DNA of 64,000 nt from Candidatus Dojkabacteria bacterium (lineage in GTDB: Bacteria > Patescibacteriota > Dojkabacteria > SC72). Shown here piece after piece: positions 663 through 27,796 of the stretch (its first letter is position 1; each line of letters opens with the position of its first letter). The translations under genes were made by a program, and so were the position numbers. The DNA is taken from positions 428,820 to 492,819 of the forward strand of contig JBMNHB010000001.1 in the NCBI GenBank assembly GCA_050950145.1, in the 5' to 3' direction. The notes beneath the pieces are model-generated. The model saw only the letters and a list, made by a program, of their open reading frames with translations, did no database searches and was not told where the DNA came from.

Positions 663-3600
663 AGTATGCAACTCCTCCAAGAACAACAATTGCTATAACC
701 CAGATATACCATTTACCTAAAACTTTCTTACCTGTTTCTTCTACATCTCCATCTGTTTTCTCCTCACTATCTTCTGTTTTTTCAACTTCTTGATCATCTA
801 CTTCTAAAACATCATCTTTCTCTCCTGCTACCTCTCCTTCATCTGTAGTATCTTTCTGGCCTGCAACCTCTCCACCTGTTGTTGTAGTGGTGGTAGTGGT
901 TGTTGCAGTAGGAGTACTTATTTTAGGTACTTCTATCACTTCAGGGTCTGATACTATGGTAGATACATTACCAAGCGCATCTACTGTTCTAAGAGCATAG
1001 TAGTATGTCTTTCCTGCTTCTGCTGTAGTATCTGTCCATGAATACTCTGTATTTGGGGATACAGGCATTGGATGAATCCTTGTACTTTCATTTGCAGTGT
1101 ATGATGGTTTATCAGATCTATGAATTTCAACTGTCTTTATTTTTGGATCATTTGGTGTCTTAAACTTTATCACATTACCTGCTTTAGAGTAGTCTATTAC
1201 AGGTGCTGGTTTTTCTAAATCTACAACAACTGTTACATCTGCTGATTTTTGCTCACCTGAAGTAGATTTTGCTACTACATAGAAAGTATATGTACCACTT
1301 GCGCTTACTGTTACTGGACAGTTACCTGTGTTTGCAGTGAATGTTGCAAATGGTGCAACTTCTGCATCTTTGTAACATTCTACTGTAATTGAATTGTTGT
1401 TAAGATCTAATGCTACAAATCCAACATTAAAGCTACTCTTGTTTGTTGGAGTTGCAGGTTGCATTATTCTTACTTTAATATCACTGTCTAATGCTAATAC
1501 TCTATTAGGAGTGAGTAGGGTTACAAATGATATTGCCATTAAACCTGTAAGAAGAGCATAGCTTAACTTCTTGAATGGTTTAAGGAGTAGGGTAATTGCA
1601 CCTAATATCATCATAATTAATGCACCTAATGTTAGATATGTACTTGCACCAGTTACTGGTAGAGTAATTGATGCACCTAATACTTCTCCTTCTTCTGTTT
1701 CAACTGGCTCTATGACTGTTACATCTGTTCCTACAAATGGTGTCTCTGGATCTACTGTAGAAGCACCTAGTACTTCACCGTCTATTAGTGATGTACCTGC
1801 TACCCATGCAATATCTGGATAGTTACCTGGATCTTGATCGAGAGAGATTTTAGTTTTGTATGTTAACACAACTTTATCTCCTTCTTTCATATCTCCAATA
1901 TTCCATTTTGCCTGACCTTTATCATCGTATATAGGTTCTGGTACTGAGATACCAACACCATTCTTTTGTGCTATCCATGAATCAAGGATATATTTGAATC
2001 CTGCTGGAGCAATGTCAGAAACTACTACATTATTTAGAACATATGTACCTTCTGATTCATCGCTTGGTGCTGTTACTGTAATTGTGTATGTAACAATATC
2101 ACCTGCTGATAATGCAACAACTGCATCATTGCTCTTTTCGATCTGTAGGATTGGATCAATTACTTTGTTGATACACTCAACTTCAAGAGTTTGATTACTT
2201 CCTAATATAACCTCTCCATCTAAGAGAACCCCTTCATCATTTACACATCCTCCGAAAGTGTATCCTTCTTTTGGTGTCTCTGTGAATGAATGAACACCTG
2301 GCTGTAATCCTTCAAATACTGCTGGTTGTTTACCATTTGATGTATCTGCAATTTGTTCTGTTACTTCACCTAAGACAACATCAAACAAATCATCTGAGAA
2401 TATATCCCCATCTACATCCTCTCCTTCACTATTTACTACATCCTTTGTAACTATTAATGTAGCTGGTAATTGTGCATTCTTACATACTACATTGTATGTC
2501 TCACCACTTCTTACTGAATAATTAGTAAATTCTTTCTTACTAATGAAGCATCCCAGAGTTGTATAATTCTCATCTTCTACTTCTGATATGGTATGTTTAC
2601 CATTTGCAACCTTGTATGTAGCTGTTGTTCCCTCTGCAATTGTTTGACCAGTACCCTCATCGTTGTTAAGAAGTGCTGTAAACTCGTGTGTATCTATCAT
2701 ATTCGTTTTTCCATCAACTCCAACAACATCTTTAGTTACATTAATTGTTGCATCTTTGAAGTTACCAAAGTTTACCAATACCCTAACATCCCCAGCTGCT
2801 ATTGTAATTGGAGCTGGATTAGCAGATGTTTGAGTCCAACCATCTTTCTGTACCTCACGAATTATATATGTTTCGCCTACTGGTAGGTTAGTAAACTCGT
2901 AGTATCCTAATATGTTTGTTATTGTAGATGGTTCTCCTACATCTAGAACACCATCATTATCCAAATCAATGAAGATTGTCCATCCTCTTAATGGTAATTC
3001 TGAGAATAGTGGTAACACATCCCACTTTCCATTACCATTTCTATCCTCATATTTGAAACCTGAGATACTACCTAATTTTTCATTAGTAAATGTACATGTT
3101 ACTGTTTCATTATCTCCAACCTTGATGTTTGCTGTATATCCATCTCTAACACTATCAGTATCATCACATACTAGAGATTTTAGATTCCAACCCTTTTCAA
3201 ATTGTTCTGTTACAGAGTAATCTCCTGGGATTACTACCTTTTCAATAGTTCCATTGTTACCAATTGTTCCAGTTAGCTCTCCTGTAAATGTAAACTTAGT
3301 CTTATCTCCTCTAGGTTCAACTAATTTCTTGATAATTATTTTACCGTGTGTACTTTTATTTGTGATTGTACATACCTTGTTATCACCAACATTTAGTGTA
3401 ACATTTCCATCTGAATCACAATCATCACTAAATGTTGCCACATATCCATCAAGATTATCTTCACTTACAGTGTAGTCACCTGCATTAAACTTATTAACTT
3501 CTCCACTAGTTACCTTATTACCTGAGACATAGAGAGTGAAGTCTGATACTTGCTTATCTCCATATGTTCCGTTATCAACAACTTTCTCTACAGTTAGTGT

Positions 3601-6600
3601 TGGTTGAATATCATTATTAACAATTGTACAAGTTACATTTTGTCCTTCTGGAAGTGTAAAGACGCCATCACTACCAAGAGAACATTCCAAACTATCCATC
3701 GTATATCCTGTACCTGCAACAGTTTCAGATAGTGTGTATTCCTTATTAACATCACCAAATACTGTTGCTGTGTAGGTTGTTGTATCACCTTCCTCAACAC
3801 CTGCGTCAAATTCTAATGTTGAGTCGGTTAGGGTGATATCAAAGTCATCTACTGTTGCTGTACCACCATGATCATTAATTACTTTCTTGATTACAGTAAT
3901 CTTAGACTGAGAGTCACTATTTGTAATTGTACAAGTCTTATTCTCACCTGAACTTAATGTAATCTTTCCATCTGCACTACAATCTCCACTCCAAGTTGAT
4001 GCTGTATATCCAGGTAACTGATCTTCTCTTACTGTATATTCAACTCCCGAGTTAACTTTGTGAGCCTTACCACTTGTTACTTCAGTATCTCCAATGTAGA
4101 GTTTAAAGTCTGCCACCTGTTTTAAGCCTCCATGATTGTTCTCAACTGTCTTCACAAGTGTAAGAGTTGGTTGTATCTCTGTATTCTTAATTGTACATAC
4201 AGTAGTCTGACCAACTTCAAGAGTTATCTGATTATTATCATCTACAACGATATCATTGGTACAATCCCAGTCACCTGCTTCATATCCTGAAATTCCTTCC
4301 TTAGCAATCTCACTTAATGTATATGTACCTGCTTTGAAGTTACCCCCACTCTTTACTCCACTATCACCAGAGATTGTTGTTGGACCTGTTGCTGTTAATG
4401 TCCAATCAGTAATTTGTGCATTACCACCATATTTATTGTCAACCTCTTTAACTAATTCTAATGATGGTGCAATGTCATCATTAGTTATTGTACAGGTTAC
4501 TCTTTGACCTTCTGTTAAAGAGAACTGATAACTACCAATAATCTTCCCTGTCTTATCATCTGTACAACTCCATTTTCCTTCCTTGTAACCAGGATGATCT
4601 ATCTCCTCCAACTCATATTTTGTATTAGATTTTACTTCTGGAGTAGCAAAATAAGTAGATGTATATTTTCCTATCTCTCCTGGCCATGTTTTAAATTTTA
4701 ATTCATCACCATTTAATTTAATTCCAAAATCATTTGCTGTTGCTGTTCCTCCGTTATCATTAACTACCCTCTTAATTACTGTTAGGGTTGGTGCTACATC
4801 ATCATTTGTAATTGTACAAACAGCTTCTTTTCCTTTTTCAACTATTATCTTGTCACAATTATCATATGTAGTAGCATATCCTCTTTGATTTGCCTCTGGC
4901 TCTATAATAGAGTAGGTACCTGTTGGGTATCTCTTATATATATTTTCACCTAATAGTGGATTTGTGGGATCTTGATCAAAACCAACACCTTTACTAGTAC
5001 CAATCTTAAATGAGAACTCTCTTGCCTCCAATTTACCACCATTATCATTAATAACTTCCTTTCTAACAATCAATGTGCCTGTATCTCTAGTATTAATAAA
5101 TCTACATAATATTTTATCTCCTGAGTTTATTGTTAACTTTGTACTCTCAGTTGGTTTCTCAAAGAATTTTACCCCGCCATTATCACACATCATTGATTTA
5201 ACAGTATAATCATCTTTCTGAATTTCAGAGATAGCATATGTACCTGGCATTATTTCCATAGGTTTTTCCTCTTTACCAAACATTTTGTATTCTTTATCAT
5301 CCAACATCCATGTCCAATCTGTTACATATCTATCATCTACTTCTCCATCACCATCTGTGTCTACAAATTTAATAACTTTAATGGTTGGTCTTTCAATATT
5401 GATAAAATCAACATTCTTTTTATCTTCTCCAGGAGAAAGTTTTATTGTCCAACTTGTACTTGTACCTGGTAAAACAATCCAACCAACCTTCATTACTTCA
5501 ACAACTGTATATTCACCTGGCTCTAATCCAGTAAATGAATATGAACCATCAAGAGCTGTTGTTGTATGTGGTTCTGTAGTTGTATCCAATTTTCCATCGC
5601 CATCTTTATCTATAAAGATTGTATATCCATATACAGGTTTTCTATCATTCGTTGTACTTGCTAATCCATCTAAATCATGAAGCTTACGACCTGAGATAGA
5701 TCCATATTTTGTATTTGTAAATGTACAAGTAACTGATTCTCCTGCACTTAATGAAATATTATCTATTGTTTTTCCATCCGTACAAGAGTATGTTGTTTTC
5801 CAATCACTATAATTATTCTCTGCAACTGCATATGTACCTGCTTTCAAACTAAATGTTTTACTTGGATCTTCTGTATCTGAGTTATCTACCAAATTAAATT
5901 GTTCATTAACTCCATTACCACCTGTCAAAGTAAATCCAAATGTATCGGTACCAAATGGTAATGCTTTCTTAACGATAGTTAATGAACCATCTTGTGTGTT
6001 AGTAATAGTACACTCCTTAGTCTCATTATTTGTAATTGTAATATTTGAACATGTATTACTTACTAAGCTCCAACCTGCTGGTAATGTTTCTGTAATATTG
6101 TATGTACCAGGCATTACATTGTATGTATGAGATTTGGTTGTTCTAATCTTCCCAATATTACTATTAGCCTCATACAAGAAAGTAGGGGAACCGTTTATCG
6201 AAGGAGTACCACTACCTGTTATTGTAAATTCAGTATTATCATTATTAGAAGCTGGACTTAGAACTTTCTTGACAGTTATCTGACCTTGTGGAATTATACA
6301 ATTATTATTGTATATCGCCTGTCCATACTCACTCCAGTTAAGACCTGTAAAGGGAATTCCATCATATGATGTGAATGGAGGAATAATATCTCCCCATTCT
6401 ACTGTTATACCTGGAAACCAAATATCACCAGTATGTCCTGCATGTCCATTTAAATTTCCAGATGCATCAGGTTCAATTACTTCATAAGGACTTGTATGAG
6501 ACTTAGTTCTATGACAAATCTTAATTGTAGGGATAATACCTTTATAGTTTGCAGGATCACTTGCTGATAAGTTATGAGATGATGTAACTGTACCAATGTT

Positions 6601-7560
6601 AGTATAGTTACCTGCAATAGCTGTAGCACTTCCTGTACAAGTCATATTTGTACCAGGTTCTAACTCTGTTCCTGGGCATGTTACTTGTACACCTTTGTCA
6701 TCTGTTACTGCAATGTTTGTTAACTTTACATTACCTGTATTTTGTACAATATATGTAAAGTTTACTGTATCTCCTGCATTTACTTGTACTGCTTCCCCAA
6801 GGGTGTTTGCATCTTGTCCATTTACTTCCTTAACAATTGAGATAGCTGGTCTTTCAACTAAGACAGAACTTAAACGACCTACTAAGTATGCAACATTATT
6901 TTTTTGCTCTTCTGTTACAAATCTATTGAGTGTATTACCTTTTGAATCTTGGAAACCATCTATTTTCAATGTATATTTCATATCTCCAATCGTATAGACC
7001 TGTTCACCATAACCACCATTAGGGAAGGTTATTATGTCATCACAAGGAGTGGTAGACTGTTGGTGTGCACCACAAGGACGTCTGTTTGGTGTTTCATCAA
7101 TATCAAAATCATAAGTAAATGTTGGTGATGGAGAAATTACAGGATTTGAGAAGTTTAATGTTACATTAAGTGTTGCACCATTAGCAGAAGTTCCTGACTG
7201 TGTTGCCCAGTTAAAATGAGTAAAATCACCGATAAGGAATGTCTCATTAGCATTAAAAGTTGTTTCTCCTTTACCATCAAATCTTAAACCACTCTTCTGA
7301 GATCCTACTGGTTTTCCCCATCTAATTTCTTTTGTATTCAAACCAGTTATATTACTACCTCCTGAGACACTTGTCCAAATACCACTAGTAGAAGAAATAG
7401 TATATGGCCCATCAGCAGCAGCTACAGGAGTAATCTCTCCTCCTATATCTCTCAACTGATCAATGGCTAAAAATGGTGGGGCAAAGTTATATCCTACTAA
7501 AAATAGGACTGTTGAAACCTTATACAAAGATTTCAAAAAAGATTTTTTGTTAAACTTCAT
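637..7560 (-). CDS. Giant (2307 aa) secreted cell-surface protein. It has many tandem beta-sandwich modules (DUF11/prealbumin-like modules ending ...VTCTITN, and SdrD/Cna-B-like DxDGDG calcium-binding modules). An internal LPVTG sorting signal lies about 340 aa before the C-terminus. Then come an FN3/Ig-like domain, a poly-Thr linker, an acidic stretch and a C-terminal TM anchor.
   Basis: The ORF is uninterrupted. It has an N-terminal signal peptide (MKFNKKSFLKSLYKVSTVLFLVGYNF), repeated CTITN/CTFTN-terminated modules, and DKDGDGKLD / DTDGDGEVDD / DLDNDGVLD motifs. LPVTG+hydrophobic+KPFKK sits at about aa 1967 (nt 1648..1662). The C-terminus reads TPTATTTTTTTTTGG ... WYIWVIAIVVLGGVAYYVRKQKRN. 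Confidence 0.8.
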   Translation of the reverse strand: MKFNKKSFLKSLYKVSTVLFLVGYNFAPPFLAIDQLRDIGGEITPVAAADGPYTISSTSGIWTSVSGGSNITGLNTKEIRWGKPVGSQKSGLRFDGKGETTFNANETFLIGDFTHFNWATQSGTSANGATLNVTLNFSNPVISPSPTFTYDFDIDETPNRRPCGAHQQSTTPCDDIITFPNGGYGEQVYTIGDMKYTLKIDGFQDSKGNTLNRFVTEEQKNNVAYLVGRLSSVLVERPAISIVKEVNGQDANTLGEAVQVNAGDTVNFTYIVQNTGNVKLTNIAVTDDKGVQVTCPGTELEPGTNMTCTGSATAIAGNYTNIGTVTSSHNLSASDPANYKGIIPTIKICHRTKSHTSPYEVIEPDASGNLNGHAGHTGDIWFPGITVEWGDIIPPFTSYDGIPFTGLNWSEYGQAIYNNNCIIPQGQITVKKVLSPASNNDNTEFTITGSGTPSINGSPTFLYEANSNIGKIRTTKSHTYNVMPGTYNITETLPAGWSLVSNTCSNITITNNETKECTITNTQDGSLTIVKKALPFGTDTFGFTLTGGNGVNEQFNLVDNSDTEDPSKTFSLKAGTYAVAENNYSDWKTTYSCTDGKTIDNISLSAGESVTCTFTNTKYGSISGRKLHDLDGLASTTNDRKPVYGYTIFIDKDGDGKLDTTTEPHTTTALDGSYSFTGLEPGEYTVVEVMKVGWIVLPGTSTSWTIKLSPGEDKKNVDFINIERPTIKVIKFVDTDGDGEVDDRYVTDWTWMLDDKEYKMFGKEEKPMEIMPGTYAISEIQKDDYTVKSMMCDNGGVKFFEKPTESTKLTINSGDKILCRFINTRDTGTLIVRKEVINDNGGKLEAREFSFKIGTSKGVGFDQDPTNPLLGENIYKRYPTGTYSIIEPEANQRGYATTYDNCDKIIVEKGKEAVCTITNDDVAPTLTVIKRVVNDNGGTATANDFGIKLNGDELKFKTWPGEIGKYTSTYFATPEVKSNTKYELEEIDHPGYKEGKWSCTDDKTGKIIGSYQFSLTEGQRVTCTITNDDIAPSLELVKEVDNKYGGNAQITDWTLTATGPTTISGDSGVKSGGNFKAGTYTLSEIAKEGISGYEAGDWDCTNDIVVDDNNQITLEVGQTTVCTIKNTEIQPTLTLVKTVENNHGGLKQVADFKLYIGDTEVTSGKAHKVNSGVEYTVREDQLPGYTASTWSGDCSADGKITLSSGENKTCTITNSDSQSKITVIKKVINDHGGTATVDDFDITLTDSTLEFDAGVEEGDTTTYTATVFGDVNKEYTLSETVAGTGYTMDSLECSLGSDGVFTLPEGQNVTCTIVNNDIQPTLTVEKVVDNGTYGDKQVSDFTLYVSGNKVTSGEVNKFNAGDYTVSEDNLDGYVATFSDDCDSDGNVTLNVGDNKVCTITNKSTHGKIIIKKLVEPRGDKTKFTFTGELTGTIGNNGTIEKVVIPGDYSVTEQFEKGWNLKSLVCDDTDSVRDGYTANIKVGDNETVTCTFTNEKLGSISGFKYEDRNGNGKWDVLPLFSELPLRGWTIFIDLDNDGVLDVGEPSTITNILGYYEFTNLPVGETYIIREVQKDGWTQTSANPAPITIAAGDVRVLVNFGNFKDATINVTKDVVGVDGKTNMIDTHEFTALLNNDEGTGQTIAEGTTATYKVANGKHTISEVEDENYTTLGCFISKKEFTNYSVRSGETYNVVCKNAQLPATLIVTKDVVNSEGEDVDGDIFSDDLFDVVLGEVTEQIADTSNGKQPAVFEGLQPGVHSFTETPKEGYTFGGCVNDEGVLLDGEVILGSNQTLEVECINKVIDPILQIEKSNDAVVALSAGDIVTYTITVTAPSDESEGTYVLNNVVVSDIAPAGFKYILDSWIAQKNGVGISVPEPIYDDKGQAKWNIGDMKEGDKVVLTYKTKISLDQDPGNYPDIAWVAGTSLIDGEVLGASTVDPETPFVGTDVTVIEPVETEEGEVLGASITLPVTGASTYLTLGALIMMILGAITLLLKPFKKLSYALLTGLMAISFVTLLTPNRVLALDSDIKVRIMQPATPTNKSSFNVGFVALDLNNNSITVECYKDAEVAPFATFTANTGNCPVTVSASGTYTFYVVAKSTSGEQKSADVTVVVDLEKPAPVIDYSKAGNVIKFKTPNDPKIKTVEIHRSDKPSYTANESTRIHPMPVSPNTEYSWTDTTAEAGKTYYYALRTVDALGNVSTIVSDPEVIEVPKISTPTATTTTTTTTTGGEVAGQKDTTDEGEVAGEKDDVLEVDDQEVEKTEDSEEKTDGDVEETGKKVLGKWYIWVIAIVVLGGVAYYVRKQKRN

Positions 7561-18874: not shown

Positions 18875-18947
18875 GGTGACGTAGCCAAGTTGGTTAAGGC
18901 CGCGGTCTGCAAAACCGCTACCACGGGTTCGAGTCCCGTCGTCACCT
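18875..18947 (+). tRNA. tRNA-Cys (anticodon GCA).
   Basis: Acceptor GGTGACG/CGTCACC. Anticodon arm GCGGT-CTGCAAA-ACCGC. T-arm ACGGG-TTCGAGT-CCCGT. It begins directly after the pyk stop codon. Confidence 0.8.
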
Positions 18948-18992
18948 CATTTTCAAAATCACTTATATTTGATAAAATACATATATTACTAA

Positions 18993-19076
18993 GCAGGAAT
19001 GGCGGAATAGGCAGACGCGCGGGACTTAAAATCCCGTTCTAGAAATAGAGTGAGAGTTCGATTCTCTCTTCCTGCA
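18993..19076 (+). tRNA. tRNA-Leu (anticodon TAA), class II with a long variable arm.
   Basis: Acceptor GCAGGAA/TTCCTGC. Anticodon arm CGGGA-CTTAAAA-TCCCG. T-arm GAGAG-TTCGATT-CTCTC. Confidence 0.8.
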
Positions 19077-19158
19077 TATCTTACCAATATCCAAACAAGG
19101 TGTTCGAAATATTCATTATCTGATAAAATAGGCATCTAAAAATCAACTAATAATAAAA

Positions 19159-19839
19159 ATGAACTTACAACTAACTAGTCCGTATATTAAATGCCCATAT
19201 GGTTGCCCATATTGTGTATCAGCTTTCGATGGAGAAAATCCCTACAACGATGATTTCTACAATAATAATACAGAGCTGTATTTAGAAAGATTAAACAAAG
19301 CTATAACAAATCATAATATATCTACTGTTGTCATAACTGGAATGACAGAACCAACATTGTTTCCTAACTTTATAAACAATGTCTTAAAAGTACTATCTAA
19401 CCATCAAAATTGTCAAGTAGAAATACAAACCGCTAATCTGAATTTCAAAGGTCTTCCTGAAATAGATGTAGTAGCATACTCTATGAGTAAAATTCCAACA
19501 AAACTCCCAGTTGCCAATTTTGGAATTACAAGATATACAATTATTTTAACAGATCAATTGTCATATGCCGATATCATAGAATTAAGAAAAAGAGTTGGAG
19601 ATGACAAACAGATTACAGTTAAGTATTTACAAAAAACATCAAATCACCATCCAAAGGTTGATGTGTATATAGAACAACACAGGAAAACTTTTTCAACTAT
19701 AGAAGCTAAAACATTAAGAGAGAAATATAATGTATGGGTTGATGAATCATGCATGGATAGTACAAACAGATATCTGGTATACAGAACAAATGGTAATTTA
19801 TATTCTACATGGGATTTTAACTCTCAGATAGAGATATAA
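19159..19839 (+). CDS. Small radical SAM enzyme, island member 1 (activase/QueE-sized, 226 aa).
   Basis: CPYGCPYC (Cx3Cx2C) at residues 12-19. VVITGMTEPT sits where the GGEP SAM-binding motif is expected. Confidence 0.6.
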   Translation: MNLQLTSPYIKCPYGCPYCVSAFDGENPYNDDFYNNNTELYLERLNKAITNHNISTVVITGMTEPTLFPNFINNVLKVLSNHQNCQVEIQTANLNFKGLPEIDVVAYSMSKIPTKLPVANFGITRYTIILTDQLSYADIIELRKRVGDDKQITVKYLQKTSNHHPKVDVYIEQHRKTFSTIEAKTLREKYNVWVDESCMDSTNRYLVYRTNGNLYSTWDFNSQIEI

Positions 19840-19907
19840 TCCATCATAAACACTCATTAGATTAAAGCACTTCATTTAGCTTCTGCTTTACAACCATTTC
19901 CATATGC

Positions 19908-19936
19908 TTGACAAGTTACCATAGTGGTGATATTAT
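19908..19936 (+). promoter_or_regulatory. Sigma70-type promoter for the radical SAM 2-3-4 plus kinase operon.
   Basis: TTGACA (19908..19913), 17-nt spacer, TATTAT (19931..19936). This sits about 40 nt upstream of the 19976 start codon. Confidence 0.4.
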
Positions 19937-19975
19937 CAAAATGTAAATAACACACATCTATATTAAAACAACACA

Positions 19976-20647
19976 ATGGAACTAATAAGAATATATATAA
20001 ATCTAACCAACAAGTGTAATGCGGATTGCGAATTTTGCTGCATGTGGTCCGAATCATCAAAAACCACTTTCATCTCATTTGATAAATTTAAAGAAATTAT
20101 AGACTCATATGATGATGACTTCGAACTTCAACTCGAAGGCGGAGAACCACTCCTACACAAAGACTTATATCTATTTATAGAATACGCTCAAAGTACAAAT
20201 AGATGTAAGAAAATAATCATAGTAACAAATGGCATATTACTTAAAAGACATATACATAGATTAGTTGAACTTCACAAATGGTACAAAACACCTGTTCTTA
20301 TAAAAATTAGTATCAACTATTGGTTATATAACATGAATAAGAATTGTATAGATGAGGCTAAAGATTTACACCTCTCTACTGAATTCATAAAAGACTTCAA
20401 CATTATTTTAAATGTAAGATTGAGAAAAAAAGATGATTGGTTAAAAAAATTAATAAAAGAAAAAGATTTAGAGAGGATATCAAATCTTTACTATCTACAA
20501 CGATATGGAAAATATGAAAACGAAAGTGAATATGATTTGCCTGTAATTGTCCAGAATGTTGATGATTGGTATATTTACTCCTGCGATGGTAAAAACTTTA
20601 AGCAAGATTTAATAGCAAGAAGTAATTATGAAAGGGGGTTAAAATAA
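19976..20647 (+). CDS. Small radical SAM enzyme, island member 2 (223 aa).
   Basis: NLTNKCNADCEFC (Cx3Cx2C). LEGGEPLL glycine-rich SAM motif. IVTNG and KISIN motifs. Its stop overlaps the next start (ATGA). Confidence 0.7.
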   Translation: MELIRIYINLTNKCNADCEFCCMWSESSKTTFISFDKFKEIIDSYDDDFELQLEGGEPLLHKDLYLFIEYAQSTNRCKKIIIVTNGILLKRHIHRLVELHKWYKTPVLIKISINYWLYNMNKNCIDEAKDLHLSTEFIKDFNIILNVRLRKKDDWLKKLIKEKDLERISNLYYLQRYGKYENESEYDLPVIVQNVDDWYIYSCDGKNFKQDLIARSNYERGLK

Positions 20648-21630
20648 TGAATACAATAAAATTTACACCAGCAAGTAATGAAAGAACTGAAACACACAAT
20701 ATAGAGGTTTATGACATCAAAGAGAAGATTTTTAATAAAAAGAAATACAGAGTATACGGGAATGCTTCCCTGACAATATATATAACTAACAAATGTAATG
20801 CTAATTGTCCTTTCTGTATGAATAAATACAAGGATAATTATCTCTACTCCAAAGAGATTAATAGCGATAAAGAATATATTGAAAGACTAGATTATGTATT
20901 AAACCAACTAAAAGATTTAAACCCAGCAATAGCTATAACTGGTGGAGAACCAACAAAAAGTTCAAAATTAGTACCAACCTTACAACTTATTAAAAGATAT
21001 GGATACAAATATAAAAGTTTCTCAACCAATGGTAGTGGCTTGCTAGATTTAGTTGACAACAAACCAATACTACAACATATGTTAGAAAACAATGTAGTTC
21101 AGAATATAAATATTAGTCGCATGCATTCAGATCAAAGAGTAAATTCAAAACTTATGATGACTCCATATGCGATCTCTAATGAAGATGTAAAAAGGATTGC
21201 AACATTCTGTAACATAAACGGGATGGGAGTTAGAATGGGATGTACTCTACAAAAGGGGGGAGTAACAAACTTAAAAGAAATACTAGATTATAGAGATTTC
21301 TATAAAAACCTCGGAGTTGAAACTACACTCTTTAGGGAGTTAGTCAACATTAAGAAATCTGCACCTAATTATGACAGTTATATGAACAAATTGGTTGACA
21401 TATCAGAAATAGTTAGAGAATTAAGAAAAAATCAAAAATTTAAACATATTAGAGATATGGAGGGACTCTATTACTCTGTACAAGTATTTTCTTATGAAGA
21501 TTCTATTGTCAAGTGTTATACAGAAAAAGATTATGATAATGACATTATAAGAGATTTCGTTTTCTATGCAGATGGACGTTTGATGGATACAGATTGGAAT
21601 AACAGGAGTAAGGTTTTATTAAATTATTAA
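20647..21630 (+). CDS. Radical SAM enzyme, island member 3 (327 aa). Viperin/MoaA-like core with no auxiliary-cluster cysteines.
   Basis: IYITNKCNANCPFC, ITGGEPT, FSTNGS and NISRMHSDQRVN sit at spacings like viperin (YHFTRQCNYKCGFC ... SGGEPF ... SNGS ... ISCDSFDEEVN). No SPASM/twitch CxxC clusters are present. Confidence 0.65.
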   Translation: MNTIKFTPASNERTETHNIEVYDIKEKIFNKKKYRVYGNASLTIYITNKCNANCPFCMNKYKDNYLYSKEINSDKEYIERLDYVLNQLKDLNPAIAITGGEPTKSSKLVPTLQLIKRYGYKYKSFSTNGSGLLDLVDNKPILQHMLENNVVQNINISRMHSDQRVNSKLMMTPYAISNEDVKRIATFCNINGMGVRMGCTLQKGGVTNLKEILDYRDFYKNLGVETTLFRELVNIKKSAPNYDSYMNKLVDISEIVRELRKNQKFKHIRDMEGLYYSVQVFSYEDSIVKCYTEKDYDNDIIRDFVFYADGRLMDTDWNNRSKVLLNY

Positions 21631-21640
21631 ATGTAAAAAC

Positions 21641-22666
21641 ATGTCAGAATTTGAAAAACTAAGATATACACGTCAAGCAAATTTTGACATAAATCAAAAG
21701 GAGCTTATAGATTTTGACTTTGATGGGTTAAAGAAAAAGGTCTACGGAAATTGTAATCTATCAATATTTGTTGATGATTTCTGTAATGCCGACTGTAAAT
21801 TCTGTGTAGCACAACTACGATATGAGAATGTGGCTAAAATCTATAAAAAAGAAACAATTAAGAATACTAATGAATACTACAAAAGGTTAGATAAAGTGCT
21901 AACAAAGTTAGAACCCCTTAATCTAAGTGTTTCATTAACTGGTGGAGAACCAACTGCATCACCTAAGTTACTAGGTATTCTAGAACTCTTAGAGAAACAT
22001 AATATGAGAAAAAGAACCATCACTACAAATGGAAGCTACCTATTACACAAGATAAATGGAGAAAGTATCCTTGATTTACTAATCAAATATAACTTTGATC
22101 ATTTGAATATTAGTAAAACACACTATGATGATAACATAAACAGGAAAATAATGAGATATAGAGAAGGGTATTGCTCTAATGAAGATTTAGCACGAATAAT
22201 ACTATATGCTTTGGAAAGAAAGTTAAGACCAAGACTAAGTTGTCTCTTGCTAAAAAGTGGGATCAGTACAATGCAAGATATAGAGAACTACATTCAATTC
22301 TATGAAAAACTTGGAATTGATAATGTCATCTTCAGAGAACTTATGGATTATGATGAAAAATCTATGTCGAATATCGAAAAAATGAAATATTGCAAAGAAA
22401 ACAAAGTAGTACTGAATAACATCTGGAAAGAAATTGATAAAAACCCCAAATTTGTACCTATCAAAAATATTTTAGGGTATTATTACTATGTAGAGATATA
22501 CCAATATAACAATGTAGTTGTATGCTCTGAATCTGCAGACCTAAAAAAGCTATATGCAGAGAAAGCTAAACATAAAGATAAAGTCTATGAAATGGTTTTC
22601 CACCCAAATGGAAATCTTAATGGTAGCTGGGTAGATAATGAAGATATTTTAATGAAATATGAATAA
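21641..22666 (+). CDS. Radical SAM enzyme, island member 4 (341 aa), a paralog of member 3.
   Basis: VDDFCNADCKFC, LTGGEPT, ITTNGS, NISKTHYDDNIN. It shares the N-terminal KKxVYGN.(S)L(T/S)I signature with the 20647 ORF. Confidence 0.65.
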   Translation: MSEFEKLRYTRQANFDINQKELIDFDFDGLKKKVYGNCNLSIFVDDFCNADCKFCVAQLRYENVAKIYKKETIKNTNEYYKRLDKVLTKLEPLNLSVSLTGGEPTASPKLLGILELLEKHNMRKRTITTNGSYLLHKINGESILDLLIKYNFDHLNISKTHYDDNINRKIMRYREGYCSNEDLARIILYALERKLRPRLSCLLLKSGISTMQDIENYIQFYEKLGIDNVIFRELMDYDEKSMSNIEKMKYCKENKVVLNNIWKEIDKNPKFVPIKNILGYYYYVEIYQYNNVVVCSESADLKKLYAEKAKHKDKVYEMVFHPNGNLNGSWVDNEDILMKYE

Positions 22667-23231
22667 AGAGAAAAAGAAAAAACATATTGTAATTGGAGGA
22701 GCTAGTAGATCAGGAAAAACTACCTTAGCTTCTATGATACGAAAAAAGAAACCCTACTACAATTACATTCCTATGGATAGTATAAAAAGAGGGATATTTA
22801 ATAATTTTGTCAAAAGTAATGGGAAAAGATGGCCTCAGGCAAGCCCTAAATTGGTAAAACTTATGAACACCATCATGGAATCAAACAACTCTAATATCAA
22901 CAAGCATTTTTACATATTTGATATCCCAATATTGTATCCTCGAGATGTTGTAAATCTAAACAATAAAGACGCTATAGTAATATTCTTTGGTTATCCCAAT
23001 ATAACCACAAAAAAGAAGATAAGATTAATTCAAAAACATGACTCTAAATGTTCTTGGTCCTATGGATTAAGTAAAGATAAGCTAAAAAAAATTGTAGTTT
23101 CAAACATTAAATTTAGCAAAGTTTTAGAAAAAGAGTGTAAAGATTTAAATATAGAATTTTTTGACACATCAAAAAACAGAGAAGTTATTTTAAAAAAGGC
23201 ATTAAAATATCTAGAGGCACAAACCCTATAG
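22659..23231 (+). CDS. P-loop NTPase, probably a small-molecule/nucleotide kinase (AAA_33-like), translationally coupled to radical SAM 4.
   Basis: Walker A GGASRSGKTT. 190 aa. Its start overlaps the preceding stop codon. Confidence 0.55.
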   Translation: MNKEKKKKHIVIGGASRSGKTTLASMIRKKKPYYNYIPMDSIKRGIFNNFVKSNGKRWPQASPKLVKLMNTIMESNNSNINKHFYIFDIPILYPRDVVNLNNKDAIVIFFGYPNITTKKKIRLIQKHDSKCSWSYGLSKDKLKKIVVSNIKFSKVLEKECKDLNIEFFDTSKNREVILKKALKYLEAQTL

Positions 23232-23248
23232 TACATATAGTGAGTTTC

Positions 23249-23293
23249 TGATATAATGCATGTGTAAATATATCACTTAGTGAATTTACACAT
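23249..23293 (+). promoter_or_regulatory. Extended -10 promoter plus a 9-bp inverted-repeat operator candidate upstream of pncB.
   Basis: TGaTATAAT (23249..23257). Inverted repeat TGTGTAAAT (23261..23269) / ATTTACACA (23285..23293) with 15-nt spacing. The AAAGGAG RBS follows, then the ATG at 23362. Confidence 0.35.
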
Positions 23294-23361
23294 CGTTCCT
23301 TATTGTTCTTTAAAAATCAAAAAAATTTATAGAAATAGTCAAGTAGTAAAGGAGAAAAACA

Positions 23362-24807
23362 ATGAATAAAGTTATAGACTTTTATGAGCTAACAATGGCT
23401 CAGGTTGATTACTTTCACGGCTTCAAAAACCTATGGCAATGCTTTGATGTCTATTTCAGAAATGATAGACGAGAAGAAGCAGAACAGAAGGGGTACTCTA
23501 TAAGTGCAGGTTTAAATGAAATCATCGATTACATTCAGAACCTGTCATTCTCTAAGGAAGAAATAGACTACCTGAGCAAGAATAGTGACTTGAAAAAAGA
23601 GTTCTTAGAATATTTAAGAACATTCAAGTTTACTGGAGATGTGTATGCCATTCCAGATGGTACACCCATTTTCCCGAACGAGCCTGTAATAACAGTATGG
23701 GCTCCAGCAATTGAAGCGAAAATCATTGAGACAGACATATTGAATCGCTTCAATCATGGGTCAATGATTGCTACCAAGGCAAAAAGAATTGTCCATGCCG
23801 CAGCAGGAAGATCAGTAATGGAGTTCGGAGCTCGAAGAGCACAAGGACTAACAGCAGCTATAAACGGCGCGAAATATGCTTACATGGCAGGGTGCGCTGG
23901 CACATCGTGCTATGGAACAGGGCTAGAATACAATGTTCCACTACTTGGAACTATGGCACATAGTCTCGTAACCCAATTTGATACTGAATATGAAGCTTTC
24001 ATTGCATATGCAAGAGAGTTTCCACACAATACTGTGCTACTCGTGGATACATACGACACACTAAGAAGTGGAGTACCTAATGCTATAAGAGTAGCAAAGG
24101 AATATCTTGAACCTCTAGGTCAAAGATTGAAGGGTATTCGTTTGGATAGTGGGGACTTAGCCTACCTTGCCAAGCAAGCAAGAAAAATGCTTGATGAGGC
24201 AGGATTACAAGACTGCAAAATTGTAGCATCCAATTCCTTGGATGAGTACACTATCCAAAGTCTGCTTGCACAGGGAGCGCCCATCGATTCCTTTGGAGTT
24301 GGTGAAAACCTCATCACTTCAAAAAGGACCCCTGTTTTTGGAGGTGTCTACAAGCTTGCTGCAATAAAGAAGGGTCGTTCAATCATTCCTACAATCAAAG
24401 TGAGCGAAGACAATACAAAGACTACCACACCAGGGTTTAAGAAGGTATATCGTTTCTACGATGAGGATACTGGCTTTGCTCTTGGCGACTTAGTTGCCTT
24501 AGCAGATGAGGTAATTCCTACCGACCAGTATAGGTTAGTAGACCATAACCATCCTTGGAAATACAAAGATCTGTCGAATTATGTATTGAAAGAACTTCAA
24601 GTTCCAATTTTCCAAAAGGGAAAGTTGGTTTACAATGTCCCATCACTCGAAGAGAGCCAGGATTATTGTTCAAGAGAATTTCAAACTCTCTATCCAGAAG
24701 TCATACGTTTAGACAATCCGCATGGCTACTACGTTGACCTTTCTGTCAAACTGGCAGATATGAGGAATCGAATGATCTTTGAACAAAGAGGCGTTCAATA
24801 CTGCTAA
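23362..24807 (+). CDS. pncB: Nicotinate phosphoribosyltransferase.
   Basis: N-terminus MNKVIDFYELTMAQVDYFHG. NAPRTase family length and architecture (481 aa). Confidence 0.85.
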   Translation: MNKVIDFYELTMAQVDYFHGFKNLWQCFDVYFRNDRREEAEQKGYSISAGLNEIIDYIQNLSFSKEEIDYLSKNSDLKKEFLEYLRTFKFTGDVYAIPDGTPIFPNEPVITVWAPAIEAKIIETDILNRFNHGSMIATKAKRIVHAAAGRSVMEFGARRAQGLTAAINGAKYAYMAGCAGTSCYGTGLEYNVPLLGTMAHSLVTQFDTEYEAFIAYAREFPHNTVLLVDTYDTLRSGVPNAIRVAKEYLEPLGQRLKGIRLDSGDLAYLAKQARKMLDEAGLQDCKIVASNSLDEYTIQSLLAQGAPIDSFGVGENLITSKRTPVFGGVYKLAAIKKGRSIIPTIKVSEDNTKTTTPGFKKVYRFYDEDTGFALGDLVALADEVIPTDQYRLVDHNHPWKYKDLSNYVLKELQVPIFQKGKLVYNVPSLEESQDYCSREFQTLYPEVIRLDNPHGYYVDLSVKLADMRNRMIFEQRGVQYC

Positions 24808-24825
24808 ACAATAAGGAACGGAAAA

Positions 24826-24901
24826 GCACCACAAGAGGTAAGATATATGTACAACAATGTACACTCTAATATCTTAAACCAACCTCAAGTGGTGCTTTTT
24901 T
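24826..24901 (+). terminator. Candidate intrinsic terminator after pncB (long stem, large loop with an inner palindrome, then a T-run).
   Basis: GCACCACAAGAGGT (24826..24839) pairs with ACCTCAAGTGGTGC (24882..24895) with 2 mismatches. TTTTTT follows at 24896..24901. Confidence 0.35.
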
Positions 24902-24921
24902 CATAAATAAAGGTATGCCCC

Positions 24922-24950
24922 TTGACAAACAACCCTGTTCTTACTATAAT
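24922..24950 (+). promoter_or_regulatory. Perfect-consensus sigma70 promoter for pncA-nadE-nadD-nrtR.
   Basis: TTGACA (24922..24927), 17-nt spacer, TATAAT (24945..24950). An AT-rich palindrome TTAATAT...ATATTAA (24951..24982) lies between the -10 and the ATG at 24984. Confidence 0.5.
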
Positions 24951-24983
24951 GTTAATATCAATATAAATTAATATTAATATATA

Positions 24984-25604
24984 ATGAAAAACAAAGAAAC
25001 AAAACTGCTCATTGTTGTGGATATGGTTAATGGTTTTGTAAAAGAAGGTGCACTTGCAGATCCCAAGATTGCAAAAATAGTACCTGAAATTACAAGACTC
25101 ATTGAACAAACAATAGATGAAGGCAATCGTGTTGTATTTGTTAAAGACACACACCATGAAAACAGTAAGGAGTTTGAGTCTTTTCCTCCACACTGTATCA
25201 AAGGTACTTCAGAAGCAGAACTTATCGATGAATTTAAACTATATGAAGAGTTAGACTTAGCAACCTCATATGAAAAGAACTCAACAAGTACTATGTTTGC
25301 AAAAGGATTCCTTAAAGATTTAGAAGAGATGGAGGAGCTAAATGAAGTTGTAATCACTGGCTGCTGCACAGATATCTGTATTACAAATCTAGCAATTCCT
25401 CTTAAGAACTACCTTAATGAAAACGACAAGGATGTAAGAGTCATTGTTCCAGAAAATGCTGTAGATACATATGATAGTGAGTGGCATAACAGAGATGAGT
25501 GGAATCTAATGGGATTAGCAATGATGAAACAGGCTGGAGTAGAAGTGCTCAAGGAATACAAAGCAGAGACAGATATTCATCACGAATGGAAAACTATTAG
25601 CTAA
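24984..25604 (+). CDS. pncA: Nicotinamidase (isochorismatase family).
   Basis: The catalytic triad context is present: VVDMVNGF (Asp), K, and ITGCCTDICI (Cys). 206 aa. Confidence 0.8.
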   Translation: MKNKETKLLIVVDMVNGFVKEGALADPKIAKIVPEITRLIEQTIDEGNRVVFVKDTHHENSKEFESFPPHCIKGTSEAELIDEFKLYEELDLATSYEKNSTSTMFAKGFLKDLEEMEELNEVVITGCCTDICITNLAIPLKNYLNENDKDVRVIVPENAVDTYDSEWHNRDEWNLMGLAMMKQAGVEVLKEYKAETDIHHEWKTIS

Positions 25605-25625
25605 TTAAGCTTATAACCGAAAACA

Positions 25626-26384
25626 ATGAAGGATTTTAATGCAGAGAAAGAAACTAAAAACATAGTAGGATTCATAAAAGAACATTACAAAAAGAATAAT
25701 CTTGGTGGAGTTGTCATTGGAGTTAGTGGAGGAAAAGATAGTGGAATAGTACTAGGACTTCTTGTTAAAGCACTTGGAAAGGAAAATGTTGTTGCTGTAT
25801 GGATGCCTTGTCACTCTAAAGATCAAGATATGAAAGATGCTCAAGAAGTTACTGACTACTATGGTGTAGATTTACTCTCCTTTGACCTTACAAAAACATA
25901 TGATGTCTTTAAAAAGGAAGTAGAGAAGGTAATAGGGGAAGATGAAAAATATATGCTTAATGCAGATATCAATGTAAAACCACGAATGAGAATGACTACC
26001 CTTTACTACATTGCTGCATATATGACTGCTAAAACTGGAAAACAATATATTGTTGCAGGAACATCAAACAAGTGTGAGATATTCATCGGTTATTTTACCA
26101 AATGGGGTGATGGTGCAAGTGATATAGCAACAATTGCAGACTACACAGTAGAGGAAGTAATAAGGATTGGAGAGTATCTAAAAGTACCAAAGTCTTGTCT
26201 TTACAAAACTCCAGATGATGGACTCTCAGGATTAACAGATGAAGAAAAATTGGGAGTGAACTATAACGAGGTTATGAAGTATATGAAAGACCCTCAAAAA
26301 GTATCAAAAGAAGCTAGGGAGAAAATTAAAAAAATGCATGAGAGTTCTCAACATAAATTTAGCATACCAACATATAGAAGATAA
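25626..26384 (+). CDS. nadE: NH3-dependent NAD+ synthetase.
   Basis: PP-loop GVSGGKDSG. About 250 aa. Its stop overlaps the nadD start (TAATG). Confidence 0.9.
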   Translation: MKDFNAEKETKNIVGFIKEHYKKNNLGGVVIGVSGGKDSGIVLGLLVKALGKENVVAVWMPCHSKDQDMKDAQEVTDYYGVDLLSFDLTKTYDVFKKEVEKVIGEDEKYMLNADINVKPRMRMTTLYYIAAYMTAKTGKQYIVAGTSNKCEIFIGYFTKWGDGASDIATIADYTVEEVIRIGEYLKVPKSCLYKTPDDGLSGLTDEEKLGVNYNEVMKYMKDPQKVSKEAREKIKKMHESSQHKFSIPTYRR

Positions 26385-27010
26385 TGAGAATTGGAATATT
26401 TGGAGGGTCGTTTAATCCTCCACACAAAGGACATTATAAAATTGCTACAAATCTCATTAAAAATGGATATGTAGATAGAGTGATTTTTGTACCAACAGGT
26501 AAAGAATATCCAAAAGATGATTTAGTTGAAGACAAGCACAGGTTAAAAATGTTGAAGATTATGACAAGTCAAGATTCTAAGTTGGATGTCTCAGATTTTG
26601 AACAGAAAGCAGAGAGAGTATATACATATCAAACATTAGATTTCTTTCAAAAAAAGTATCCCAAAAACAATATATATTTCATATGTGGAAGTGATAATTT
26701 AGAATATTTTACCACATGGAAAAACTGGGAATATATACTTACTAATTACAAACTTTTAGTGCATATAAGAAGAATATTCTCATACCCTCAAGACTTAGAA
26801 AAATATAAAAAGAATGTAATATTTTTACAAAGAAGATATAATGTGTCCTCTACAGTTATTAGAGAGCTATTAAGAGATAAAAAGGATAGAAAATGCCTAA
26901 CAAGATTTTTAGATCCAAATGTATTAAAATATATTGAAAGGAAACATTTATATGAAAGAAACAAAGTATCATTCGGAAGAAGAGTTCTTACAACATTACA
27001 ATCCCAATGA
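26384..27010 (+). CDS. nadD: Nicotinate-nucleotide adenylyltransferase.
   Basis: GIFGGSFNPPHKGH (the (H/T)xGH motif) at the N-terminus. The C-terminal part contains the SxT-type motif. Confidence 0.85.
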   Translation: MRIGIFGGSFNPPHKGHYKIATNLIKNGYVDRVIFVPTGKEYPKDDLVEDKHRLKMLKIMTSQDSKLDVSDFEQKAERVYTYQTLDFFQKKYPKNNIYFICGSDNLEYFTTWKNWEYILTNYKLLVHIRRIFSYPQDLEKYKKNVIFLQRRYNVSSTVIRELLRDKKDRKCLTRFLDPNVLKYIERKHLYERNKVSFGRRVLTTLQSQ

Positions 27011-27791
27011 CTACGAAAGATTATCTGCGACAGTAGACATTTTAATTTTTAGTGTCTCGGATACTTTTACTGATAATTATAGAAAAACAAATAAGAAAAA
27101 CTTTAGTATTTTGCTCGTAAAGAGAAAGACTTATCCATTCAAAGACAAGTGGTGTTTACCAGGAGGGTTTGTTGATGTAAAAGAAACAATTGATGATGCT
27201 GCCAAGAAAGTACTCGCCAATGAAACAAATCTTCATAACATCTATATAGAACAACTATATACAATGGGTGAAGTTGATAGGGATCCAAGAATGAGAGTAA
27301 TTAGTATTTCGTATATGGCTTTAATAGATAAAAATCTTTTAGAAGATAAACTTCCCAAAAATGCAGATTGGTTTGATATTTCATTAAACGAAAATGAAGA
27401 ACAGATAGATGTTGAGTTAAAAGGAAAGAATGAGAAAATTAATTTTTCAGTGAAAAAAGAGTTAATAGAAAAAACTACAATGAAGTACCGATACAATGTT
27501 GTACAAAACGATAAGATTGCATTTGATCATCCAGTAGTAATTGCAATAGGAGTTGAAAGATTAAAGAATAAAATAGAATATACAGATATTGTATTTAATA
27601 TGATGCCAAAACTATTTACTTTAGGAGAATTACAAAAAGTATATGAGGTTATTCTAGATAAGAAACTATTAGCTCCAGCATTCAGAAGGATTATTAAGAA
27701 TAAAGTAGTTAAGACCAATAATATGAAAACAGGTGCAGGACATAGACCATCAGTACTATACAGGCACAAAAATATAAGAACTAGATATTAG
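26934..27791 (+). CDS. nrtR: Nudix-domain protein with a C-terminal winged-helix domain, a probable NrtR-type NAD-metabolism regulator. The start is uncertain because it overlaps nadD.
   Basis: A degenerate Nudix box GGFVDVKETIDDAAKKVLANETNL. The C-terminal FTLGELQKVYEVILDKKLLAPAFRRII resembles the NrtR wHTH signature (FTLSELQ.VYE.ILG...NFRRK). It is encoded in an NAD salvage operon. Confidence 0.55.
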   Translation: MKGNIYMKETKYHSEEEFLQHYNPNDYERLSATVDILIFSVSDTFTDNYRKTNKKNFSILLVKRKTYPFKDKWCLPGGFVDVKETIDDAAKKVLANETNLHNIYIEQLYTMGEVDRDPRMRVISISYMALIDKNLLEDKLPKNADWFDISLNENEEQIDVELKGKNEKINFSVKKELIEKTTMKYRYNVVQNDKIAFDHPVVIAIGVERLKNKIEYTDIVFNMMPKLFTLGELQKVYEVILDKKLLAPAFRRIIKNKVVKTNNMKTGAGHRPSVLYRHKNIRTRY

Positions 27792-27796
27792 TCTTA

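Follow-up and report, generated by a model that had tools for sequence, protein, structure and literature searches.

A 64,000-nt stretch of the genome of a Candidatus Dojkabacteria bacterium (assembly GCA_050950145.1, contig JBMNHB010000001.1, positions 428,820 to 492,819 of the forward strand; below, the window) contains four radical S-adenosylmethionine (rSAM) enzymes and a small P-loop kinase, followed by genes of nicotinamide adenine dinucleotide (NAD) salvage. The rSAM proteins are denoted A226, B223, C327 and D341, or A to D, and the kinase K190, or K. The whole region is a strain-variable, horizontally exchanged island that combines a NAD salvage operon with two uncharacterised rSAM modules. 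We tentatively propose, and rate at somewhat under an even chance, that the rSAM enzymes and K190 carry out a radical transformation of some NAD-pathway compound that contains pyridine or ribose, and serve as an accessory branch to the salvage or reconstitution of NAD; both the class of the substrate and the direction of the pathway are what we infer. A first-pass annotation of the window had described four rSAM reading frames of 226, 223, 327 and 341 aa with a P-loop kinase behind a tRNA-Cys/tRNA-Leu pair, and open reading frame (ORF) and tRNA calls confirm this description.

The island was compared with the corresponding sites of related genomes, with the upstream pyruvate kinase gene (Pyk) as the anchor; loci are given by our own numbers. 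The island begins about 4 nt past the 3' end of tRNA-Leu. It is missing in L158, L159, L161 and L234, where Pyk is 91-97 % identical to that of the window, and in L163-L167, where it is 61-62 % identical. The order at the empty sites is Pyk-tRNA-Cys-tRNA-Leu(taa)-[0 or ~330 bp]-small minus-strand gene-AAA_17 gene-FtsW-MurG. The occupied sites are those of the window, of L004 (Pyk 73 %) and of L241/L242, the last without B-C-D-K. As the relatives with empty sites lack the whole segment, the NAD genes belong to the island. The supposition that the rSAM block stops at a housekeeping NAD operon is thus not supported: the operon lies in the same island and is found again and again with these rSAM genes, both in other lineages and in phages. 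The tRNA pair does mark a variable insertion site, and the proposed check of neighbourhood conservation found the island at the tRNA site of some relatives only, the site being empty in others. The description as a classic tRNA island holds for the presence/absence polymorphism at the tRNA; however, no ORF in 19081-27793 encodes an integrase, and no att-type or tRNA-derived repeat was found at the right junction of the island. The identical arrangement is present in three independent assemblies (L001-L003) and therefore is not an assembly artefact.

The tRNA-Leu(taa) site of two island-free strains is occupied by a different insert of about 330 bp (L159:8000-8345 and L161:~5900-6245). It opens with a promoter-like TTGACA-N17-TATGAT and, as RNA, folds far better than shuffled sequences (z = -6.9), with no match in Rfam. 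This insert is a candidate structured small RNA.

The four rSAM genes form two modules, the single gene A226 and the B-C-D-K cassette with B+D as its core. In the blastn comparison of the window with L241, positions 19833-23259 are left unmatched. The gene order in L241/L242, a third Dojkabacteria-type genome, is Pyk-tRNAs-A-PncB-PncA-NadE-NadD-NrtR, and since A is accompanied there by the NAD genes and not by B-C-D-K, it is a separate module. In a survey of 80 genome loci and 73 viral loci, B adjoins D in nearly all of the former and in most of the latter. C is confined to a Firmicutes/Dojkabacteria clade and some jumbo-phage contigs, and K to a Bacilli/Dojkabacteria subclade; no relatives of K190 were found in viral contigs. 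A is absent from the surveyed D-anchored loci outside Dojkabacteria. The initial view of four enzymes and a kinase acting in one pathway had to be abandoned: A stands apart, C is a lineage-restricted paralogue of D, and K is restricted to a subclade. Kinship of A226 with the phage rSAM family v30 or with the Bacilli rSAM family c58 was considered and rejected, as no relation was found.

The cassette has been exchanged recently. L004 and the window share 92-100 % nucleotide identity over 19949-24948, that is, over B, C, D, K and pncB. Elsewhere the identity is about 69 % in the flanks, 86 % in A, 62-70 % in pncA and 56-90 % in nadE, nadD and nrtR; at the protein level PncB is 98 % and PncA 51 % identical. 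This mosaic implies recent horizontal exchange of B-C-D-K-pncB and, together with the strain-variable presence, bears out the suggestion that the block is mobile. L241 shows a uniform amino acid identity of about 70 % to the window, in the flanks and the island alike, and thus the island of A and the NAD genes is older. The comparison of base composition that had been recommended gave a mixed picture. The GC content of the cassette is 0.29 against 0.33 in the window, and the GC content at third codon positions (GC3) is 0.25-0.27 in B-K against 0.18-0.21 in the core genes Pyk, FtsW and MurG. The composition of pncB is atypical (GC 0.41, GC3 0.37). From the shared tract, pncB was evidently transferred together with B-C-D-K.

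On the evidence of the sequences, no characterised rSAM family fits A, B, C or D. A CX3CX2C near the N-terminus and a motif of the (G)GEP type had been reported in each protein, and both are seen in the translations: CPYGCPYC and TGMTEP in A226, CNADCEFC and EGGEP in B223, CNANCPFC and TGGEP in C327, CNADCKFC and TGGEP in D341. Pfam family PF04055 matches B, C and D with E-values of 1e-11, 1e-9 and 2e-13, respectively, and A226 with 25.3 bits (E 2e-5), under the cutoff of 29.5. D and C are 34 % identical over their full length (E 1e-50), and the A family aligns with the D family end to end (hhalign, 95 %). The similarity of B to D is limited to the N-terminal core. In the D family the sole invariant cysteines are C48/C52/C55 and C201, with no C-terminal cysteine triad, and the mean column identity is 69 % in an alignment of closer relatives (55-72 % identical). 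The invariant residues are C12/C16/C19 and C198 in the A family, and C14/C18/C21 together with the motifs QxEGGEP and NVR in the B family. No auxiliary cysteine cluster is conserved in the alignments of the four families. The reported absence of SPASM/twitch clusters and of QueC, QueD or MoaC partners thus agrees with the family alignments and the gene content.

Searches of Pfam, NCBIfam, PADLOC and PHROGs yielded generic rSAM or P-loop matches only, and no curated cutoff was reached, in line with the early remark that no standard pathway is known to use such a set. With the MoaA model TIGR02666, B, C and D score 50.5, 43.0 and 46.2 bits against a cutoff of 284, and neither the island nor any of 156 related loci has MoaC or other molybdenum cofactor genes. 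With the viperin model NF038283 they score 38, 35 and 44 bits against 180, in the N-terminal half only, and the PADLOC models of prokaryotic viperins (pVip) give only generic matches of 36-52 bits to the N-terminal core. A scores 24.7 bits with the QueE model TIGR03365 (cutoff 206), and the island has no que genes. The NrdG/PflA model TIGR02495 gives 20-39 bits against 131, with no NrdD or pyruvate formate-lyase nearby. The models of maturases of ribosomally synthesised and post-translationally modified peptides (RiPPs) give 27-35 bits against cutoffs of 300-850. No precursor-peptide ORF was found in the list of ORFs of at least 50 aa, peptides below 50 aa not having been searched systematically, and the island encodes no transporter. 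In PHROGs only generic rSAM families were matched.

Public annotations describe D as "molybdenum cofactor biosynthesis enzyme MoaA" or "cyclic pyranopterin phosphate synthase". A sequence search of PDB with D returned generic matches only, a "Radical SAM domain protein" (6y1x) and GDGT-MAS. By fold comparison, D is nearest to MoaA and viperin and is also close to the nucleoside-sugar rSAM enzymes BlsE and DesII. K190 has the Walker A motif GASRSGKTT; its matches to P-loop kinases are weak, and in PDB the P-loop alone was matched. Its fold is that of a small-molecule kinase, with NRK1 among three near-tied top matches. These folds make the suggested role in nucleotide or small-molecule modification plausible.

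The evidence for a link to NAD is the recurrent neighbourhood. In the window, pncB, pncA, nadE, nadD and nrtR constitute, judging by their domains, an NrtR-type Preiss-Handler salvage operon in which all expected families are present; the last four genes were assigned to Isochorismatase, NAD_synthase, CTP_transf_like and NUDIX+WHD_NrtR, the Pfam calls being made on the identical genes of L001/L002. Elsewhere, B+D are found beside Preiss-Handler genes in at least six independent gene orders. The order in L006 is PncA-PncB-NUDIX-NadE-NadD-B-C-D-K-ADP-ribosylglycohydrolase (ARH)-PncC-DUF5662-NadK-NrtR. Four loci (L005, L008, L012, L019) have Prs-NadD-B-C-D-K-...-PncC-NadK, in some with an rSAM gene after K. 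The order is B-C-D-PncA-PncB-NUDIX-NadE-NadD-NadK-NrtR in Erysipelotrichaceae (L024), NrtR-B-C-D in Lachnospiraceae (L030) and NrtR-PncA-B-D, with overlapping genes, in Johnsonella (L037); in Ruminococcus (L039) B-D adjoin PncB-PncA-NUDIX. The 164-kb phage contig L138 carries PncB-B-D-rSAM-NadE(Gln)-[305 aa, weak nicotinamidase]-NadD-NrtR, which is essentially the gene content of the window island. The idea that this phage lacks a nicotinamidase, so that its rSAM enzymes supply nicotinate, was dropped, as the 305-aa gene weakly matches three nicotinamidases.

The A-like family shows the same association. In L238-240 the order is PncA-PncB-NUDIX-NadE-...-Prs-A-NadD-x-NrtR-NadK, where A is translationally coupled on both sides and its product is 31 % identical to A226; L251 has A-NadD. 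As rough controls, NAD genes were found in 0 of 66 Pyk-anchored gut loci (L172-L237), and a single weak NAD match was found among about 44 loci (L040-L083) that are mainly from Proteobacteria and Myxococcota. Both the D-type and the A-like family occur either within NAD operons or in regions of phages and other mobile genetic elements (MGEs). A DUF5662 gene is present both in a Bacilli NAD cluster (L006:10892-11428) and near an A-like rSAM gene in a viral contig (L252:9290-9853); DUF5662 may be another uncharacterised family of NAD-related phage/host biology.

Large phages and other mobile elements are the main carriers of the B+D pair. Relatives of D were found in 127 of about 185,000 species representatives, in a scattered distribution that takes in Dojkabacteria, gut Bacilli, Clostridia, Bacteroidales metagenome-assembled genomes (MAGs), DPANN and Asgard archaea, Cyanobacteria, Sorangium, Enhygromyxa, Betaproteobacteria and Planctomycetota. 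Viral contigs contain 115 relatives of D, many of them in gut phages of about 150 kb and some in contigs of up to 440 kb. Among GenBank phages B-D occur in only one, the metagenomic Dulem virus 40, where the pair is annotated as "Fe-S oxidoreductase" and "molybdenum cofactor biosynthesis enzyme". The A-like family is rare (10 clusters), and its genes outside NAD operons lie among PemK/MazE/PcfJ genes in MGE-like regions; in L247, a serine recombinase gene lies beside B-C-D.

Four Muribaculaceae MAG loci (L020, L023, L027, L031) have a lone D-like gene in a prophage-like context of ASCH, ParB-N/methyltransferase, SNF2 helicase and small HTH proteins. As this context matches that of the viral loci L121, L123-L125, L128 and L151, these "genome" loci are probably prophages. 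The D homologue credited to Acetivibrio alkalicellulosi (L017, VLTH01000002.1) comes from a record flagged UNVERIFIED_CONTAM, and its organism assignment is not trustworthy. Identity of the "Paludibacteraceae" contig L018 with the megaphage L130 was rejected, as blastn gave no match.

B-D also have other recurrent neighbours. In Proteobacteria, Planctomycetota, Obscuribacterales and Helarchaeota the pair is preceded by a MoxR-type AAA protein (PF07726), two unknown proteins, one of which carries a vWA-like DxSGS motif, and a PaaK-like AMP-ligase. A Methyltransf_24 enzyme follows B-D in Myxococcota, DPANN and a cyanobacterial MAG, and in Clostridia the pair comes with a protein of 650 aa whose C-terminal domain is D-like. 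D is followed by a 3'-phosphatase of the polynucleotide kinase (PNK) type in phages of about 150 kb and by a PD-(D/E)XK nuclease elsewhere. No PADLOC model matches any of these partners.

In one viral contig (L090:~8001-10050) D is fused to the PD-(D/E)XK nuclease in a protein of 683 aa; in L087 (10170-12638), L089 and L122 the two are separate overlapping genes, and the neighbouring helicase of L087 holds an intein with Hint and LAGLIDADG domains. Additional rSAM proteins were seen near B-D. A methylthiotransferase (MTTase)-like protein (UPF0004 + rSAM) is encoded behind K in Bacilli loci (L008:9596-10639, also L005). The phage family v30, weakly similar to RlmN/Cfr (L138:9027-10055 and 3695-4591 on the minus strand; L152:6774-7559), adjoins B-D or distant D-like genes.

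If the rSAM enzymes and K190 do work on an NAD-pathway metabolite, the candidate substrates would be a nicotinate-type nucleoside or nucleotide, or its precursor or breakdown product. Cells with small genomes would co-express the rSAM branch with the NAD operon, and in phages and other MGEs it would help to maintain or alter the NAD pool in the course of infection. More speculatively, at roughly one chance in three, the clade of D-like enzymes (D, C and A) with the partner B could catalyse a step of pyridine-nucleotide metabolism by a radical reaction not known before, as part of a new phage-disseminated pathway of NAD reconstitution or protection that bacteria of the candidate phyla radiation (CPR), gut Firmicutes and large phages would use in the contest for NAD. 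The reaction might be an rSAM-dependent making or rescue of the nicotinate or nicotinate mononucleotide (NaMN) moiety, or the production of an NAD analogue that resists or inhibits NADases. To our knowledge, radical-SAM chemistry is not used anywhere in the synthesis, salvage or reconstitution of NAD, and a literature search found no paper linking rSAM enzymes with NrtR, PncA, PncB or NAD biosynthesis.

Several observations weigh against a role in NAD metabolism. Most occurrences of B+D have no NAD gene within ±8 kb, including those in the gut phages of about 150 kb, in Clostridia and in the Sorangium, Betaproteobacteria and DPANN loci; the general function of the family may not be NAD-specific. 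Other recurrent partners point elsewhere, to the MoxR-AAA/vWA/AMP-ligase set, Methyltransf_24, the PNK-type phosphatase and the PD-(D/E)XK nuclease. The NAD-linked Bacilli loci are interrelated, so that some seemingly independent architectures may stem from one ancestral insertion followed by rearrangement. Finally, the NAD operon of L241 works as a unit without B-C-D-K, and the candidate NrtR operator of the window lies 5' of pncB, with none at the promoter of the cassette.

The strongest competitor, which we consider unlikely though a real contender, is that B-(C)-D and the kinase are an effector of a conflict system and that their product might be an altered nucleotide, for example a viperin-like 3'-deoxy-3',4'-didehydro (ddh) nucleotide or an NAD or NaMN analogue, directed against phages or against host immunity. 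The nearness of the NAD genes would then reflect the role of NAD as battlefield or as source of substrate, with PncB building the nucleotide, as the phosphoribosyltransferase (PRTase) of Ophion does, and K190 phosphorylating it. The patchy distribution driven by horizontal transfer, the abundance in phages and the MGE-like regions with a serine recombinase (L247) or PemK/MazE/PcfJ genes suit such an effector, and the recently exchanged unit is B-C-D-K-PncB. The combination of rSAM and kinase parallels the pVip-kinase systems, the pVip models being the only ones matched in PADLOC, and Ophion, with an rSAM, a PHP and a PRTase component, is a validated defence system. The MoxR-AAA, vWA-like and AMP-ligase genes ahead of B-D recall vWA-MoxR systems with an rSAM effector (PMC7159879), but these partners match no PADLOC model. 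Moreover, the pVip scores of 40-52 bits cover the N-terminal core only, NF038283 gives 44 bits against 180, and an assignment to defence is not supported by these generic matches. Embedding in the same direction within the housekeeping NAD operons of reduced genomes is awkward for a generator of toxic analogues, and the island of the window has no known defence genes. Finally, phages themselves carry B-D, and therefore a simple antiviral role is unlikely. The NAD-salvage reading and the effector reading converge on NAD as the contested metabolite. It is also conceivable, but rather improbable, that these are phage-derived enzymes for the modification or repair of DNA, RNA or tRNA, and that the adjacency to NAD genes is incidental. 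Phage neighbours of the pair include the PD-(D/E)XK nuclease, fused to D in L090, a C5-DNA methylase, helicases and an RNA ligase; the PNK 3'-phosphatase lies directly behind D in many phages of about 150 kb, and TROVE/Ro60 occurs with vWA. The Muribaculaceae prophage-like loci add ASCH and ParB-methyltransferase genes, and D has many conserved basic residues. However, early and auxiliary regions of phages are dense in nucleic-acid genes anyway, and the fusion in L090 could be a single frameshift, since the D and nuclease genes overlap by 4 nt in L087. No nucleic-acid-binding domain was found, the fold neighbours act on small nucleotides, and the repeated operonic coupling to PncA/PncB/NadD/Prs would be left unexplained.

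A role in the maturation of a cofactor or metallocentre is still less probable. The product might be, for example, a cofactor derived from nicotinate adenine dinucleotide (NaAD) and analogous to the nickel-pincer nucleotide, and the proteins would form a multi-rSAM and NTPase set comparable to HydE/G/F. Each cluster has three to four rSAM genes, counting the MTTase-like one in L008 and v30 in phages, and in the Bacilli loci the block directly follows NadD, the NaAD-forming enzyme. MoxR/vWA partners, typical of metal-centre insertion, lie beside B-D in some lineages. On the other hand, no candidate client enzyme such as LarA is encoded nearby, carriage by phages is hard to explain, and K190 has a P-loop of the kinase type, not of the GTPase type. 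Ordinary housekeeping enzymes of MoaA, QueE, NrdG/PflA or MiaB type in lineage-wide synteny, or a RiPP maturation cluster, are the least credible option of all. The public annotations of D and weak NCBIfam matches to MoaA, QueE and NrdG hint at such enzymes, but all these scores are far under the cutoffs, and there are no auxiliary-cluster cysteines, no SPASM/twitch domain, and no MoaC, QueC/D or NrdD partners. The first-pass annotation had noted that known families in lineage-wide synteny would make the block ordinary; instead, the genes are missing from close relatives, and the family is present in only 127 of about 185,000 species. The lack of a transporter, and of an evident precursor-peptide ORF in the list of ORFs of at least 50 aa, speaks against RiPP maturation. 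By scores, cysteines, partners and distribution, both the housekeeping and the RiPP explanation are all but refuted.

The coordinates of the features of the locus are collected in Table 1.

Table 1. Features of the island and its tRNA-proximal boundary, in coordinates of the window.
Feature	Position	Strand	Basis or remark
tRNA-Cys(gca)	18875-18948	+	ARAGORN + Rfam
tRNA-Leu(taa)	18993-19076	+	ARAGORN + Rfam
Strain-variable island, ~8.7 kb (A, B-C-D-K, pncB, pncA, nadE, nadD, nrtR)	19081-27793	+	
A226, compact D-like rSAM enzyme, 226 aa	19159-19839	+	ORF list
B-C-D-K cassette, 3.4 kb	19833-23259	+	inserted between A and pncB relative to L241
Sigma-70-like promoter, TTGACA-17-TATTAT, extended TG	19908-19936	+	11/12 matches; inside the cassette, 40 nt 5' of the B start codon
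B223, small rSAM enzyme, 223 aa	19976-20647	+	ORF list
C327, rSAM, full-length paralogue of D, 327 aa	20647-21630	+	ORF list
D341, MoaA/viperin-fold rSAM, single cluster, C-terminal motif HPNGNLNGSW, 341 aa	21641-22666	+	
K190, small P-loop kinase, small-molecule or nucleoside kinase fold, 190 aa	22659-23231	+	
Perfect palindrome TGTAAAT-N14-ATTTACA, candidate NrtR operator	23263-23290	.	upstream of pncB
pncB, nicotinate phosphoribosyltransferase	23362-24807	+	Pfam NAPRTase_N/NAPRTase_C
pncA, nadE, nadD, nrtR, remaining Preiss-Handler operon and regulator	24984-27791	+	

The genes of the cassette are tightly packed. B and C overlap by 1 nt (TAATG), C and D are separated by 10 nt, and D and K overlap by 8 nt (ATGAATAA). 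The near-consensus promoter reported ahead of B is present, with an extended -10 box; the region shows no enrichment of promoter-like matches in general. An Rfam search for riboswitches across the island found the two tRNAs and nothing else. The palindrome upstream of pncB is the sole site without mismatches in the 64-kb window and is kept in L241 and L004; it is placed just 3' of an extended -10 box (TGATATAAT). The idea of an operator shared by the promoter between A and B and by pncB was not supported, as the palindrome search found no copy at the cassette promoter. Behind pncB, the stretch 24822-24950 contains a hairpin with 18-nt arms that are 89 % complementary, a T-run and, ahead of pncA, a sigma-70 promoter with 12/12 consensus matches (24922-24950). 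It is also here that the tract shared with L004 at 92-100 % identity has its right end. At the left end of the window, a minus-strand ORF of 2307 aa occupies 637-7560.

The supply of NAD is of central importance in the struggle of phages with bacteria, and ultra-small, host-dependent CPR bacteria depend on it critically. If the proposed role is true, it would add a new enzymatic branch to the textbook NAD pathway or a new NAD-based strategy of counter-defence. A seemingly "housekeeping" NAD operon of a CPR genome turns out to be strain-variable cargo, the unit of selection being an island centred on NAD, and the B+D pair is a small, well-defined and highly conserved target for enzymologists, for which the substrates to try first are evident.

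Among known systems, MoaA differs in having auxiliary [4Fe-4S] cysteines and molybdenum cofactor partners; the rSAM proteins of the window have neither and are missing from close relatives. In comparison with pVip and its nucleotide kinase, D reaches only 44 bits against 180 and aligns in the N-terminal core alone. Moreover, pVip has a single rSAM protein, whereas the system of the window has two or three that would cooperate, a C-terminal NGNLNGSW hairpin domain, abundance in phages and embedding in a NAD operon. The ternary vWA-MoxR conflict systems in which the effector is a radical-SAM protein (Kaur et al. 2020, PMC7159879) are similar by gene content, as B-D follow a MoxR-type AAA protein and a DxSGS protein in some lineages; however, the window has no MoxR or vWA genes, and no peptide effector was seen. 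Ophion of Gammaproteobacteria combines OpnA, an rSAM protein related to viperin but distinct from it, with a PHP phosphatase and a PRTase. By its description, it is conceptually similar to the set of rSAM, NAPRTase and kinase in the window. However, it has a type-I PRTase, a PHP phosphatase and a single rSAM, whereas the island has a NAPRTase, a kinase and no PHP gene. The phage NAD+ reconstitution pathways NARP1/2/3 (PMC13464706) are mobile phage-borne sets of genes that rebuild NAD. Similarly, in phage L138 B-D are joined by PncB, NadE, NadD, NrtR and what is probably PncA. No rSAM occurs in the described NARP pathways (0 occurrences), whereas the system of the window uses the deamido (nicotinate) route and includes three to four rSAM enzymes and a novel kinase.

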